NCBI RefSeq assembly: GCF_003334815.1
Contig: NZ_QOWO01000002.1
Reading direction: 5' to 3' (one strand)
DNA: 64,000 nt
DNA from: Escherichia coli
Lineage (GTDB): Bacteria; Pseudomonadota; Gammaproteobacteria; Enterobacterales; Enterobacteriaceae
Shown: piece by piece, positions 6,743 through 45,976 of the stretch
Numbering within the stretch: the stretch's first letter is position 1
How the letters are laid out: every line of letters starts with the position of its first letter
Made by a program: the position numbers and the translations under genes
Notes under the pieces: generated by a model
The model's input: the letters and a program-made list of their open reading frames with translations, nothing else
The model's database searches: none
What the model was told of the DNA's origin: nothing

Positions 6743-6772
6743 ATGCAGGCATAAAAATTGGGGGAGGTGCCT

Positions 6773-9049
6773 ATGCTCAATCAAGAACTGGAACTCAGTT
6801 TAAATATGGCTTTCGCCAGAGCGCGCGAGCACCGTCATGAGTTTATGACCGTCGAGCACTTGTTACTGGCGCTGCTCAGTAACCCATCTGCCCGGGAGGC
6901 GCTGGAAGCGTGTTCTGTGGATTTGGTTGCGCTCCGTCAGGAACTGGAAGCCTTTATTGAACAAACCACACCCGTTCTGCCTGCCAGTGAAGAGGAGCGC
7001 GACACACAGCCGACGCTGAGTTTTCAGCGTGTACTGCAACGTGCGGTCTTCCATGTCCAGTCCTCCGGTCGCAATGAGGTTACCGGTGCAAACGTTCTGG
7101 TCGCTATCTTTAGCGAACAGGAGTCGCAGGCGGCATATCTGTTGCGTAAACATGAAGTCAGCCGTCTCGATGTGGTGAACTTTATCTCTCATGGCACGCG
7201 TAAAGACGAGCCGACACAGTCTTCTGATCCTGGCAGCCAGCCAAACAGCGAAGAACAAGCTGGTGGGGAGGAACGTATGGAGAATTTCACGACGAACCTG
7301 AATCAGCTTGCGCGCGTGGGCGGAATCGACCCACTGATTGGTCGTGAGAAGGAGCTGGAGCGTGCTATTCAGGTTCTCTGCCGTCGCCGTAAAAACAACC
7401 CGCTGCTGGTGGGGGAATCTGGTGTCGGTAAAACCGCGATTGCGGAAGGTCTTGCCTGGCGAATTGTTCAGGGCGATGTGCCGGAAGTGATGGCTGACTG
7501 TACGATTTACTCTCTCGATATCGGTTCTCTGTTAGCGGGCACAAAATATCGCGGCGACTTTGAAAAACGTTTTAAAGCGTTGCTCAAGCAGCTGGAGCAG
7601 GACACTAACAGCATCCTGTTTATTGATGAGATCCACACCATTATCGGTGCGGGTGCAGCGTCTGGTGGTCAGGTCGATGCGGCTAACCTAATCAAACCGT
7701 TGCTCTCCAGCGGTAAAATTCGTGTAATTGGTTCGACAACCTATCAGGAGTTCAGCAACATTTTCGAGAAAGACCGTGCTCTGGCGCGTCGCTTCCAGAA
7801 AATTGATATTACTGAACCGTCGATCGAAGAAACTGTTCAAATCATCAATGGCCTGAAACCGAAGTATGAAGCGCACCACGACGTGCGTTATACCGCAAAA
7901 GCGGTGCGTGCGGCGGTAGAGCTGGCGGTGAAATACATTAACGATCGTCATCTGCCGGATAAAGCCATTGATGTTATCGACGAAGCGGGCGCTCGCGCAC
8001 GCCTGATGCCGGTAAGCAAACGCAAGAAAACCGTTAATGTGGCGGATATTGAGTCCGTGGTGGCCCGTATTGCACGCATTCCAGAGAAGAGTGTTTCTCA
8101 GAGTGATCGTGATACCCTGAAAAACCTCGGCGATCGCTTGAAAATGCTGGTCTTCGGTCAGGATAAAGCCATTGAGGCGCTGACTGAAGCCATTAAGATG
8201 GCGCGTGCAGGTTTAGGTCACGAACATAAACCGGTTGGTTCGTTCCTGTTTGCCGGCCCTACCGGGGTCGGGAAAACAGAGGTGACGGTACAGCTTTCGA
8301 AAGCTTTGGGCATTGAGCTTCTGCGCTTTGATATGTCCGAGTATATGGAACGCCATACCGTCAGCCGTCTTATTGGTGCGCCTCCGGGATACGTTGGTTT
8401 TGATCAGGGCGGTTTGCTGACTGATGCGGTCATCAAGCATCCACATGCGGTGCTGCTGCTGGACGAAATCGAGAAAGCGCACCCGGACGTGTTCAATATT
8501 CTGTTGCAGGTGATGGATAACGGTACGCTGACCGATAACAACGGACGCAAAGCAGACTTCCGTAACGTGGTGCTGGTGATGACCACCAACGCCGGGGTAC
8601 GGGAAACTGAGCGCAAATCCATTGGTCTTATCCACCAGGATAACAGCACCGATGCGATGGAAGAGATCAAGAAGATCTTTACACCGGAATTCCGTAACCG
8701 TCTCGACAACATTATCTGGTTTGATCATCTGTCAACCGACGTGATCCATCAGGTGGTGGATAAATTCATCGTCGAGTTGCAGGTTCAGCTGGATCAGAAA
8801 GGTGTTTCTCTGGAAGTGAGCCAGGAAGCGCGTAACTGGCTGGCCGAGAAAGGTTACGACCGGGCAATGGGCGCTCGTCCGATGGCGCGTGTCATCCAGG
8901 ACAACCTGAAAAAACCGCTCGCCAACGAACTGCTGTTTGGTTCGCTGGTGGACGGCGGTCAGGTCACCGTCGCGCTGGATAAAGAGAAAAATGAGCTGAC
9001 TTACGGATTCCAGAGTGCACAAAAGCACAAGGCGGAAGCAGCGCATTAA
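6773..9049 (+). CDS. clpA: ClpA, ATP-dependent Clp protease ATPase/chaperone subunit
   Basis: ORF 6758..9049; start placed at [11 protein letters not shown] (758 aa); two AAA+ modules ([16 protein letters not shown]). Confidence 0.95.
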
Positions 9050-9261: not shown

Positions 9262-9349
9262 GTTCACTGCCGTACAGGCAGCTTAGAAATTCACAGGTAA
9301 CATACTCCACCCGCCCACCATGTTCACTGCCGTACAGACAGATAAAATG
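9262..9349 (+). CRISPR. Orphan type I-F (Ypest-type, CRISPR4-like) mini-array: 2 repeats, 1 spacer, no adjacent cas genes
   Basis: 28-bp repeat GTTCACTGCCGTACAGGCAGCTTAGAAA at 9262-9289; 32-bp spacer ttcacaggtaacatactccacccgcccaccat at 9290-9321; degenerate terminal repeat GTTCACTGCCGTACAGACAGATAAAATG at 9322-9349. Confidence 0.7.
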
Positions 9350-9392: not shown

Positions 9393-9480
9393 TGGCGGTG
9401 AGGGGGGGATTCGAACCCCCGATACGTTGCCGTATACACACTTTCCAGGCGTGCTCCTTCAGCCACTCGGACACCTCACC
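9393..9480 (-). tRNA. serW: tRNA-Ser (anticodon GGA), 88 nt including CCA
   Basis: Reverse complement reads GGTGAGGTGTCCGAGTGGCTGAAGGAGCACGCCTGGAAAGTGTG...GGTTCGAATCCCCCCCTCACCGCCA; long variable arm typical of class II tRNA-Ser. Confidence 0.93.
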
Positions 9481-24229: not shown

Positions 24230-24249
24230 TACCCAATTTTTCTGAATCT

Positions 24250-24277
24250 AAAAAGCGCCTGCGGGCGCTTTTTTTGT
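24250..24277 (+). terminator. Rho-independent terminator of serS
   Basis: aaaaagcgcc-tgcg-ggcgc followed by TTTTTTTG. Confidence 0.7.
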
Positions 24278-24467
24278 CTCCCTTTGATACCGAACAATAA
24301 TTACTCCTCACTTACACGTAATACTACTTTCGAGTGAAAATCTACCTATCTCTTTGATTTTCAAATTATTCGATGTATACAAGCCTATATAGCGAACTGC
24401 TATAGAAATAATTACACAATACGGTTTGTTACTGGAATCAATCGTGAGCAAGCTTGAGTGAGCCATT

Positions 24468-34589: not shown

Positions 34590-34711
34590 TGCGGTGTTTC
34601 TCCAGATGTGGCCCATCTGAGGCCGTGTTGGTGCGCAGCTCGAAGGCTACGTCGAGTCTGTTTTGGCAGTCACCTTAAAGTATAGATAGCTGACAAAAAA
34701 GGCTCTCGCGC

Positions 34712-34740
34712 TAAAAAAGGCCCCACTTTCGTGGAGCCTT
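34712..34740 (-). terminator. Probable Rho-independent terminator of pflB
   Basis: Minus-strand hairpin ggctccac-gaaa-gtggggcc followed by TTTTTT. Confidence 0.5.
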
Positions 34741-34780
34741 TATTGTACGCTTTTTACTGTACGATTTCAGTCAAATCTAA

Positions 34781-42320: not shown

Positions 42321-43604
42321 ATGGAATCCCTGACGTTACAACCCATCGCTCGTGTCGATGGCACTATTAATCTGCCCGGTTCCAAGAGCGTTTCTAACCG
42401 CGCTTTATTGCTGGCGGCATTAGCACACGGCAAAACAGTATTAACCAATCTGCTGGATAGCGATGACGTGCGCCATATGCTGAATGCATTAACAGCGTTA
42501 GGGGTAAGCTATACGCTTTCAGCCGATCGTACGCGTTGCGAAATTATCGGTAACGGCGGTCCATTACACGCAGAAGGTGCCCTGGAGTTGTTCCTCGGTA
42601 ACGCCGGAACGGCAATGCGTCCGCTGGCGGCAGCTCTTTGTCTGGGTAGCAATGATATTGTGCTGACCGGTGAGCCGCGTATGAAAGAACGCCCGATTGG
42701 TCATCTGGTGGATGCGCTGCGCCTGGGCGGGGCGAAGATCACTTACCTGGAACAAGAAAATTATCCGCCGTTGCGTTTACAGGGCGGCTTTACTGGCGGC
42801 AACGTTGACGTTGATGGCTCCGTTTCCAGCCAATTCCTCACCGCACTGTTAATGACTGCGCCTCTTGCGCCGGAAGATACGGTGATTCGTATTAAAGGCG
42901 ATCTGGTTTCTAAACCTTATATCGACATCACACTCAATCTGATGAAGACGTTTGGTGTTGAAATTGAAAATCAGCACTATCAACAATTTGTCGTAAAAGG
43001 CGGGCAGTCTTATCAGTCTCCGGGTACTTATTTGGTCGAAGGCGATGCATCTTCGGCTTCTTACTTTCTGGCAGCAGCAGCAATCAAAGGCGGCACTGTA
43101 AAAGTGACCGGTATTGGACGTAACAGTATGCAGGGTGATATTCGCTTTGCTGATGTGCTGGAAAAAATGGGCGCGACCATTTGCTGGGGCGATGATTATA
43201 TTTCCTGCACGCGTGGTGAACTGAACGCTATTGATATGGATATGAACCATATTCCTGATGCGGCGATGACCATTGCCACGGCGGCGTTATTTGCAAAAGG
43301 CACCACCACGCTGCGCAATATCTATAACTGGCGTGTTAAAGAGACCGATCGCCTGTTTGCGATGGCAACAGAACTGCGTAAAGTCGGCGCGGAAGTGGAA
43401 GAGGGGCACGATTACATTCGTATCACTCCTCCGGAAAAACTGAACTTTGCCGAGATCGCGACATACAATGATCACCGGATGGCGATGTGTTTCTCGCTGG
43501 TGGCGTTGTCAGATACACCAGTGACGATTCTTGATCCCAAATGCACGGCCAAAACATTTCCGGATTATTTCGAGCAGCTGGCGCGGATTAGCCAGGCAGC
43601 CTGA
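42321..43604 (+). CDS. aroA: 3-phosphoshikimate 1-carboxyvinyltransferase (EPSP synthase)
   Basis: 427-aa [38 protein letters not shown]... Confidence 0.96.
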
Positions 43605-43650
43605 ATGAACAACGGGCAATAAATAGCCAAATCTTTCTTTATCAAAACGT

Positions 43651-43663
43651 CGGCACATTGTCG
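43651..43663. repeat. Left copy of 13-bp target-site duplication (cggcacattgtcg) flanking IS4
   Basis: Identical 13-mer directly abuts both IS4 termini (43651-43663 and 45090-45102). Confidence 0.85.
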
Positions 43664-45089
43664 TAATGCCAGTCAGTTAAGCAACTGACTGGCTCTTTTT
43701 CGGGGCTGTGGGGTATTTCCAGGGCCTCTCCTTTACCACTCTCGGGAAGGCCCTTTCCCTTCTTGTCGGTAATTTCACAAGTTGTCCCATACTTGCAAGA
43801 TCGCGCATCAGCTCCGGTATACGTCCCGGTGAAGCGCCCTGCAATGTCATCAGCATTCTCATCACCATTCCGCATGATTCTGAGAAACTCAGTTGATTCG
43901 GCCAGTAACCTTTCAGATGTTCCGCCATTTTAATTATCTGATATCTCACCAGATTATAAGCCAGTAAGACACCCCACAGCTCTTGCTCCACAAGCTCCGG
44001 TTTTTTACTTCTCAGCGTCAGCCTGCTCAGTTGCATCGTCTGTTTTATCTCCCTGTATCCCAGTTCGATTTCCCAGCGATGACTGTACAGATCCGCCATT
44101 TCTCCTCCGGGGAAGCGCATGGCGTCCGTCATCGACGTCAGCAGATGGCAGACTTTTCCTTTGCGCGTCACGGTCAGCAGGCGGGCAGTCACTTCATTTC
44201 CCAGTCCCGGCCACTTTTTTCGTGCCTGCGGGCTGGTTTTCAGCTTCACCAGATGATCGCCTTTACCCAGTTTTCTGATCTCTTCATATTGCGCTCCCTT
44301 TCTGAGAGGTATCATCCAGTGGCGGTGTTCTCCCGCCAGGCTCCAGGCATTTAACAGTCCCAGTGAGTAATAACCTTTATCCATTAACGTCAGAGTGTTA
44401 TCGCCGGTTTGTTCTATAAGTTGCTCAGCAAGCTCATTTTCGCTGTTCTTCATCGTGCCGAAGGCTGCAGCCGTCAGCAGATGGCTGGTCAGTTCCATCT
44501 GGCAGACCATTTTGACCTGCGGGTAGAGCGCCGGGTTCCCGGCATGTGTCTGGCGGGGGAAGGCTGCATCGTTCTCTGGTGTATCCGGTGTGCGCCAGAA
44601 CACACCATCGATGGCCAGCAGGGTCAGGCCGCACCAGTGCGGATGCGGCGTGGCGTTATGCCAGAGCTGCGCTGTTTTCGTGAACACGCGGCGGACAGCC
44701 TCACTTCCCAGGCGCTGGCGGGCCTGAATAACGGCACTGGGGGCAACGAAGGGGCGATTGCCCGGCAGCATGATGTCCAGGCGATTCACAATCTGGTGAA
44801 GAGGTTCTTTACGCTCAAGCGCCATGCCAACAATACACCAGACCATCATTTCGAGGGGAAGACGGCGCTTGCGTAGCGTTACAGTACCTGATTCGGCAAG
44901 GCAACGAGAGATGAGTTCGGGGTCGAGGTAATCCCCCAGAGAAGTCAGTGGGTTACGCAGAGAATCGTAACGGGATACCAGATCAAGAGCCTGTCCAATG
45001 TGCATAAAAAAATCCGGAAACAAGTGAGCGTTTCCGGATTCTTACACAGCCACTGGATCGGTCAACTGATCCTTAACTGATCGGCATTA
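43664..45089 (-). mobile_element. IS4: Insertion sequence IS4 (1426 bp), complete
   Basis: Encodes the IS4 transposase InsG; 18-bp imperfect terminal inverted repeats taatgccagtcagttaag and taatgccgatcagttaag (16/18); length 1426 bp; 13-bp direct duplication of target. Confidence 0.92.
43677..45005 (-). CDS. insG: IS4 transposase (DDE family)
   Basis: ORF 43677..45023; start placed at [24 protein letters not shown] (442 aa); recognised as IS4 InsG. Confidence 0.93.
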
Positions 45090-45102
45090 CGGCACATTGT
45101 CG
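45090..45102. repeat. Right copy of 13-bp target-site duplication (cggcacattgtcg) flanking IS4
   Basis: Identical to 43651-43663; followed by gcgtttttttt, the 3' remainder of the interrupted aroA terminator. Confidence 0.85.
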
Positions 45103-45211
45103 GCGTTTTTTTTCGGACCTTGTGAGTCATTTTGATTAATGGTAGCGTCGCTTGTCAATGTAAGTTGTTGATACATAATATTTATATATGATTAATCAAC
45201 GGATGATTCAC

Positions 45212-45976
45212 ATGAAGAATACTAAATTACTGCTGGCGATTGCGACCTCTGCAGCATTACTGACAGGGTGTCAAAATACCCACGGTATTGATACCAATAT
45301 GGCTATCAGCTCCGGTTTAAATGCCTATAAAGCAGCAACATTAAGCGATGCCGATGCAAAAGCGATTGCCAATCAGGGCTGTGCCGAAATGGACAGCGGC
45401 AATCAAGTCGCAAGTAAATCCAGCAAGTACGGTAAACGTCTGGCAAAAATCGCCAAAGCATTGGGTAACAATATTAATGGCACGCCGGTCAACTATAAGG
45501 TTTATATGACCAGCGACGTCAACGCATGGGCGATGGCGAACGGCTGTGTTCGTGTCTACAGTGGCCTGATGGACATGATGAATGACAACGAAATTGAAGG
45601 CGTTCTGGGCCATGAACTGGGCCACGTCGCGTTGGGTCACTCGCTGGCTGAAATGAAAGCTTCTTATGCGATCGTTGCCGCACGCGATGCCATTTCAGCT
45701 ACCAGCGGTGTGGCTTCCCAGCTTTCCCGCTCACAATTAGGTGATATCGCAGAAGGCGCTATCAATGCTAAATACTCCCGTGATAAAGAGTCCGAAGCAG
45801 ATGATTTCTCCTTTGATCTGTTGAAGAAACGTGGCATCAGCACCCAGGGGCTGGTTGGCAGCTTTGAAAAACTGGCTAGCCTGGATGGCGGTCGCACCCA
45901 GTCCATGTTTGACTCTCACCCACCATCAACAGAGCGTGCGCAACACATCCGTGATCGTATCGCCTCTGGTAAGTAA
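45212..45976 (+). CDS. loiP: M48-family metalloprotease lipoprotein YcaL (LoiP)
   Basis: ORF 45188..45976; start placed at MKNTKLLLAIATSAALLTGCQ (lipobox); HELGH zinc motif. Confidence 0.9.
   Translation: MKNTKLLLAIATSAALLTGCQNTHGIDTNMAISSGLNAYKAATLSDADAKAIANQGCAEMDSGNQVASKSSKYGKRLAKIAKALGNNINGTPVNYKVYMTSDVNAWAMANGCVRVYSGLMDMMNDNEIEGVLGHELGHVALGHSLAEMKASYAIVAARDAISATSGVASQLSRSQLGDIAEGAINAKYSRDKESEADDFSFDLLKKRGISTQGLVGSFEKLASLDGGRTQSMFDSHPPSTERAQHIRDRIASGK

Follow-up and report, generated by a model that had tools for sequence, protein, structure and literature searches.

The window, by which we mean the whole 64-kb stretch of E. coli DNA that was analysed, carries an insertion sequence between aroA and ycaL. 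The coordinates of the features at this locus are collected in Table 1. The element is a complete copy of IS4, 1426 bp in length, with its transposase encoded on the minus strand. Its termini, TAATGCCAGTCAGTTAAG and the reverse complement of CTTAACTGATCGGCATTA, match at 16 of 18 positions, and across positions 1-1426 it is 99.9% identical to RefSeq E. coli copies annotated as "IS4-like element IS4 family transposase". The comparison of the ends and the full-length identity therefore bear out the original prediction, made from the sequence, of a complete 1426-bp IS4 with 16/18 terminal inverted repeats. The open reading frame (43677-45023, minus strand) scores 303 bits with the NCBIfam model NF033592, for which the cut-off is 115. 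It encodes the Pfam domains Nterm_IS4 (PF13006) and DDE_Tnp_1 (PF01609), and the Y-2-R-3-E-6-K (YREK) signature is found at residue 307. The transposase is a single frame with no frameshift, reading 442 amino acids from an ATG at 45005 to a stop codon at 43677-43679. Membership in IS4 follows from the length, the ends, the 13-bp target site duplication (TSD), which falls in the 11-13 bp typical of IS4, the domains, the signature and the 99.9% nucleotide identity to annotated copies, well above a threshold of 95%. With its reading frame and ends intact, this full-length copy is, to judge by its sequence, apparently functional. An element covering at least 80% of IS4 is found in 2,480 of 5,426 complete E. 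coli genomes.

In comparison with IS4 of E. coli K-12 (insG; ISfinder IS4, IS4 family, IS4 subgroup), the window copy has the same length, ends and transposase, and a TSD within the range of 10-13 bp published for the IS4 family (PMC2266710), but its location differs and it bears two private substitutions. One of these, a T at 43935 (IS position 272) where eight other IS4 copies have a C, causes the change M357I in the transposase. IS position 524 is polymorphic (A or T) among the copies compared.

A perfect 13-bp direct repeat, CGGCACATTGTCG, flanks the element at 43651-43663 and 45090-45102. The repeat does not reach any further in either direction, and there is no other copy on either strand of the window; the chance that a 13-mer would abut both ends of IS4 is about 4^-13.

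Two further features of the window lie away from this locus. A residual type I-F-like CRISPR array is present at 9262-9348, with clpA (6758-9049) on one side and a tRNA gene (9396-9480, minus strand) on the other. It has a single good repeat at 9262-9289 (Rfam CRISPR-DR4, 50 bits), a spacer of 32 nt and a second repeat that is degenerate, and no cas genes were found near it. At 24243-24377 on the minus strand, between the serS and dmsA regions, there is a full-length match (140 bits) to the enterobacterial sRNA STnc130.

Table 1. Features of the occupied aroA-ycaL locus, with positions in the window.
Feature	Position	Strand	Basis
aroA CDS, final gene of serC-aroA; the insertion lies downstream	42321..43604	+	ORF list; annotation in matching RefSeq loci
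Left terminator remnant: A-tract, 5' stem arm, loop, top of 3' arm, left TSD	43644..43663	+	sequence, fold
IS4	43664..45089	- (strand of transposase)	full-length 99.9% identity; IR 16/18
Terminal inverted repeat IRR (transposase 3' end), adjoins aroA	43664..43681	.	end comparison
IS4-borne hairpin 43668-43693 (11 bp) and TCTTTTT 43694-43700, terminator-like in the direction of aroA	43668..43700	+	fold, terminator scan
IS4 transposase (InsG-type)	43677..45005	-	442 aa; RefSeq-style TTG start 45023
15-bp leader hairpin (45043-45008) with U7 immediately ahead of the transposase AUG	45006..45043	-	fold
Transposase promoter-like site, TTGACC-16-AAGAAT, overlapping GATC sites	45038..45065	-	sequence match
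Terminal inverted repeat IRL (transposase 5' end), adjoins ycaL	45072..45089	.	end comparison
Right terminator remnant: right TSD 45090-45102, rest of 3' arm, T8 45106-45113	45090..45113	+	sequence, fold, terminator scan
Promoter-like site, native, upstream of ycaL, untouched by the insertion	45152..45181	+	consensus match only
ycaL CDS (metallopeptidase YcaL)	45212..45976	+	ORF list; annotation in matching loci

The interrupted hairpin downstream of aroA

Excision of IS4 together with one copy of the repeat restores the sequence ...ATCAAAACGTCGGCACATTGTCGGCGTTTTTTTTCGG..., which is predicted to fold into a hairpin with a 12-bp stem and a 3-nt loop, followed by T8 (-14 kcal/mol, z = -3.8); none of 200 shuffled sequences folds as well. 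aroA ends with its stop codon at 43604, and the stem begins 40 nt beyond it. This empty site is present with 100% identity over 399 bp in K-12 MG1655, C600, ATCC 8739, strain C and many others, and is covered to at least 80% in 4,902 genomes. The canonical form of the hairpin and its position suggest that it is the terminator of the serC-aroA operon, and a literature search for serC-aroA with terminator returned no paper.

These data may be compared with what had been proposed from the sequence. An insertion into an intrinsic-terminator-like hairpin after aroA agrees with the reconstructed fold and its T8, with the distance from the stop codon corrected from about 45 bp to 40 nt. The belief that K-12 lacks an IS at this junction proved right for MG1655, and the suggested alignment to reference genomes recovered the single-copy empty site both there and in many other genomes. 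Empty-site genomes have one copy of the 13-mer, so that the flanking repeat is a true duplication of a single-copy target. On the downstream side, the right remnant does keep the T-run, as had been stated, but not most of the stem: a 5-bp hairpin, 5 of the 12 native pairs, is all that is left in front of T8. The native sequence that remains upstream of the ycaL ATG (45212), estimated earlier at about 110 bp, measures 109 bp and includes the promoter-like site.

Transcription at the two ends of IS4

Only 5 nt inside the element, on the strand of aroA, lies a perfect 11-bp hairpin (43668-43693) which overlaps the stop codon and the last codons of the transposase. Its predicted stability exceeds that of the native hairpin (-18.7 kcal/mol, z = -5.9, versus -14 kcal/mol). 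The terminator scan reports this hairpin and, further on at 43744-43759, another terminator-like site that is weaker. The TTTT that follows the hairpin is kept in 27 of 29 diverged IS4 versions, which are 75-82% identical overall, and the next 50 nt diverge; the retained TTTT also encodes Lys-Lys near the C-terminus of the transposase, and its conservation may reflect codons and the inverted repeat. If this hairpin serves as a terminator, aroA transcripts would end at 43694-43700, about 20 nt further downstream than natively, where they would stop just past 43675.

The earlier reading of this locus was that aroA transcripts probably enter IS4 antisense to the transposase gene, since the terminator has been split. 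In that event the resulting RNA might damp transposase expression. The native lower stem and T-run are in fact separated from the 5' arm, and because the T-run after the IS-borne hairpin is itself interrupted (TCTTTTTC), some read-through is plausible. Against this stand the greater predicted stability of the hairpin that takes the place of the native one, its T-rich tail, the weaker site that follows it and the retention of TTTT in diverged relatives. On balance the predicted hairpin and its TCTTTTT make read-through from aroA into IS4 doubtful and its extent likely reduced, and we regard it as unlikely. In the interpretation that we favor, the aroA mRNA would probably be terminated at the hairpin carried by the IS, with no antisense run through the transposase gene, as the folding predictions suggest. 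The insertion probably leaves the expression of both aroA and ycaL largely intact.

At the other end of IS4, the hairpin in the transposase leader has a predicted energy of -18.8 kcal/mol (z = -5.45). Comparison of six diverged copies shows it to be 98.6% paired and to include two compensatory pairs. Because the 5' arm and the -10 hexamer of the promoter-like site overlap, the hairpin would be complete only in transcripts that enter from outside. In insertions of the opposite orientation, the leader hairpin with its U7 would stop or mask such read-in transcripts. Taken with the hairpin at the aroA-facing end, this suggests a model in which IS4 would be insulated from read-in in either orientation.

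It is of interest to compare this arrangement with that of IS10 and IS50, the elements of Tn10 and Tn5, in which protection from external read-through transcription is provided by fold-back structures confined to read-in transcripts. These elements share with IS4 a relationship within the IS4 family, and the IS4 leader hairpin would likewise be complete only in transcripts started outside. IS4 differs in that its hairpin ends in U7 and looks terminator-like, going beyond a mask of the ribosome binding site alone, and in that a second hairpin with a T-run is present at the opposite end. A separate observation concerns the IRL end (45030-45089, minus strand), where the inverted repeat and the -35 element are overlapped by three GATC (Dam) sites and by a motif, GATCAGTT, that is present twice. 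By analogy with IS10 and IS50, this suggests methylation-dependent control.

The presence of inward-facing, terminator-like hairpins at both ends, combined with the target preference described below, raises the idea that IS4 is built to live inside terminators. We offer this tentatively, as something that may be so but on which we would not insist. If it is true, the upstream gene would regain a 3' hairpin whichever way IS4 is oriented, and transcription from outside would be kept out of the element. Insertions would then be near-neutral, which would account for the occupancy in two orientations, described below, in about 2% of E. coli genomes.

The target pattern of IS4

The insertion specificity of IS4 has been called spectacular, and a strong target selectivity of the IS4 subgroup has been published (PMC2266710). 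Selective insertion into extragenic palindromes is also a property of IS1397, ISKpn1 and ISRm22, which target REP sequences and of which ISRm22 is in the IS4 family (PMC1525189). IS4 resembles these elements in entering extragenic palindromic hairpins with high selectivity, but its targets are individual, varied, terminator-like pseudo-palindromes, as well as coding sites, and not a repeated REP family. Eight new insertions of IS4 were reported in mutation-accumulation lines of K-12 (Lee et al. 2016).

Targets of IS4 that have been described include the pheST attenuator and sites in galT. Mayaux and colleagues are said to have reported in 1984, for IS4 in the pheST attenuator, a pseudo-palindromic consensus AAA-N20-TTT; the string AAAN20TTT was not found in the literature that we searched. 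The element in the E. coli B lon promoter is IS186, a member of the IS4 family and not IS4. On this ground the statement that places IS4 there (PMC4632034) was set aside as an example of an IS4 insertion.

The window target reads AAAACGT-CGGCACATTGTCG-GCGTTTT and fits AAA-N20-TTT. IS4 sits here in a terminator hairpin, a feature shared with the preference described earlier. Six other E. coli sites were compared with it: lysS-idi (core CGGCAAATGTCG, context ACAACCC...GGGTTTTTT), cgtA-dacB (core CGGCCATATGCCG, context GAAACCC...GGGTTTC), yihL-typA (core GCCAGCGATGGC, context AAAAAAACCT...AGGTTTTTT), a site beside an IS110 remnant (core CCTGATGATTG), and two positions in coding sequence, within fiu (core CCCACGCCGGGG, context AAAAAACGCA...ACGTTTTT) and within ygeA (core CGCCCTGTGCGC). 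The seven distinct sites, two of them intragenic, have a common layout of A-tract, core and T-tract, and all fit the described preference.

A wider set of flanks was obtained by scanning for the 30-nt IS4 terminus in one genome per species, which yielded 67 loci. Overall there were 66 unique flanks from many Enterobacterales, belonging to IS4 and close relatives, and from these the pattern was derived independently of the AAA-N20-TTT consensus, with which it agrees. The layout is an A-tract, 5-7 nt, a duplicated core of 11-13 bp, 5-7 nt and a T-tract. Inspection of the 66 flanks reveals A at 74-86% in positions -20 to -17, a C/G-rich arm from -15 to -9, an AT-rich loop from -8 to -5, and G at 74% in position -4 and at 81% in position -1. 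Watson-Crick complementarity extends over all four outer pairs of the duplicated core in 41% of sites, compared with 1.3% of offset controls, and the A-tract is present in 80% of sites, compared with 7.7% of offset controls.

The same scan shows that IS4-like elements have multiplied in some Enterobacterales other than E. coli. Those with the exact 30-nt terminus number 16 in Kosakonia oryziphila REICA_142, and an IS4-like expansion was also seen in Budvicia diplopodorum, Silvania hatchlandensis, Buttiauxella sp. A111 and Dryocola boscaweniae; these expanded copies outside E. coli are mostly at contig ends of draft assemblies. A contig labelled Chryseobacterium sp. 18061 and one of Citrobacter sp. 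18056 from the same project share an identical IS4 flank, and a 1.4-kb contig labelled "Oscillospiraceae MAG" is, at 90% identity, essentially a single IS4 copy. Both cases appear to reflect cross-contamination or mis-binning and not a real host range.

A target matrix trained only on the 59 flanks from outside E. coli was applied to the window with IS4 removed. The aroA-ycaL site ranks 13th of 62,509 positions, which makes it approximately the seventh locus, at +4.2 SD. The top site is the intergenic hairpin of pflB-pflA (near 34734; 34700-34760), where synthetic junction queries detected no IS4 in either orientation in 5,426 genomes. Either further determinants make this hairpin a poor target or it is a site that is counter-selected. 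The loose string AAA-N20-TTT occurs 31 times in the window. Together, these loose matches and the empty pflB-pflA hairpin mean that the target rule is descriptive and not sufficient. A stricter palindrome criterion (A4-N17-20-T4 with at least 5/6 complementary arms) was tried and abandoned, as it misses the aroA site, which has two G·U wobble pairs.

Recognition of terminators as such was also considered as the primary rule and was rejected, given the two sites in coding sequence. The use of fiu and ygeA sites with the same layout indicates that IS4 reads a pattern of sequence or shape. In strain ECONIH1 the siderophore-receptor gene fiu is interrupted by IS4 (TSD CCCACGCCGGGG), and fiu-IS4 junctions in both orientations occur in at least 16 E. 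coli genomes, at least eight for each orientation, making this a gene-disrupting hot spot. The amino-acid racemase gene ygeA is split (TSD CGCCCTGTGCGC) in several unrelated strains, XDL among them.

We propose that the IS4 transposase would prefer a target with two-fold symmetry, composed of an A-tract, about 6 nt, a core of 11-13 bp, about 6 nt and a T-tract. The core would be cut with a stagger and so become duplicated, and a terminator hairpin with an upstream A-run would be the commonest natural instance of this pattern. Since the aroA-ycaL terminator fits it, this site would have been hit many times independently in E. coli, always between the same two bases of each strand and in either orientation.

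Recurrence at the aroA-ycaL junction

In searches with the left junction, and with the entire 2.2 kb of the occupied locus, IS4 was found at the exact site and in the orientation of the window in 40 of 5,426 complete E. coli genomes, among them NCTC86, IAI39 and CE10. A synthetic query in which the IS was inverted identified 68 of the 5,426 genomes with IS4 at the same site in the other orientation. Both counts include clonal relatives, such as several NCTC86 assemblies, and overstate the number of independent events. The insertion had been proposed, with reservation, to be specific to this strain, and this is contradicted by the occupation of the site in 40 and 68 genomes.

The window and eight occupied loci that were fetched from other genomes were compared, the orientation being assigned by BLAST with internal IS sequence. 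In all nine loci the insertion bonds and the frame of the 13-bp duplication are identical, irrespective of orientation. The duplication matches the allele of the local background, which is either CGGCACATTGTCG or CGGCACATTGCCG, with T or C at position 11. The flanks differ at up to approximately 200 of 4,800 nt (about 4%) and the IS copies at 0-17 of 1,426 nt (about 1%). For example, NCTC86EC and isolate 30348_1#195 have no IS differences and 200 flank differences. Single nucleotide polymorphisms (SNPs) in the flanks are found within 25 nt of the junction. Between the window and NCTC86EC there is a single nucleotide difference in 4.8 kb of flank and there are two in the IS; the window copy is one that is shared with the NCTC86 lineage.

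A different kind of copy is present at this site in MS20645, which has a B2-like background. This IS4 is 1424 bp long and frameshifted, and it is the most diverged copy that was examined, with 13-17 differences. This suggests that it is an older insertion which is now decaying.

Flanks that are up to about 4% diverged around IS copies that are at most about 1% diverged imply backgrounds more divergent than common descent of the insertion would allow, and a recurrent hot spot at the junction. For the nine loci, the parsimonious reading of the sequences would be several independent insertions, about five in number. A contrary explanation needs no transposition hot spot and posits one or two ancient insertions that were inherited or spread by homologous recombination. 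Clonal relatives probably make up many of the 108 occupied genomes, which speaks for this explanation. However, the two orientations at the same bonds and a duplication that carries the local allele are difficult to reconcile with it, SNPs as close as 25 nt to the junction argue against recombinational import of an occupied allele, the IS copies are far more alike than their flanks, and the same target architecture is found at 66 unrelated sites. We consider such a history very improbable. Recurrence might instead be due to selection, for example for altered expression of ycaL or aroA, and not to target choice by the transposase. This would fit with the occupation of aroA-ycaL in about 2% of genomes when the best matrix site, pflB-pflA, is never occupied, although purifying selection against insertion at pflB-pflA would account equally well for this contrast. 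Both orientations are found, the region upstream of ycaL is intact, and the pattern is used at many unrelated loci and in many species, including sites where a gene is disrupted, so that selection is also an improbable cause, if less so than ancient descent. We therefore return to target choice, and hold with considerable confidence the explanation as a whole: a full-length IS4 transposed into the hairpin of the aroA terminator by virtue of its target preference, and brought with it what we infer to be a substitute terminator.

Much of this was known. The element and the type of target have been described, and the insertion is already annotated in public RefSeq genomes (NCTC86, IAI39 and CE10). 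Our literature search found no paper that joins IS4 with aroA or ycaL or with intrinsic terminators, nor any on IS-borne replacement terminators for IS4. The aroA-ycaL hot spot and the replacement terminators carried by the IS are modest extensions of known biology.

The window copy is thus a routine IS4 that marks an NCTC86-like lineage. The terminator between aroA and ycaL is a natural and recurrent hot spot for IS4 in two orientations, and could serve as a typing marker. For annotation pipelines and operon predictions, read-through at such insertions is not to be assumed. The hot spot may also provide a test bed for the way in which a DDE transposase reads a symmetric target composed of A-tract, hairpin and T-tract, and could be used to test whether the hairpins borne by an IS replace the terminators that it destroys.
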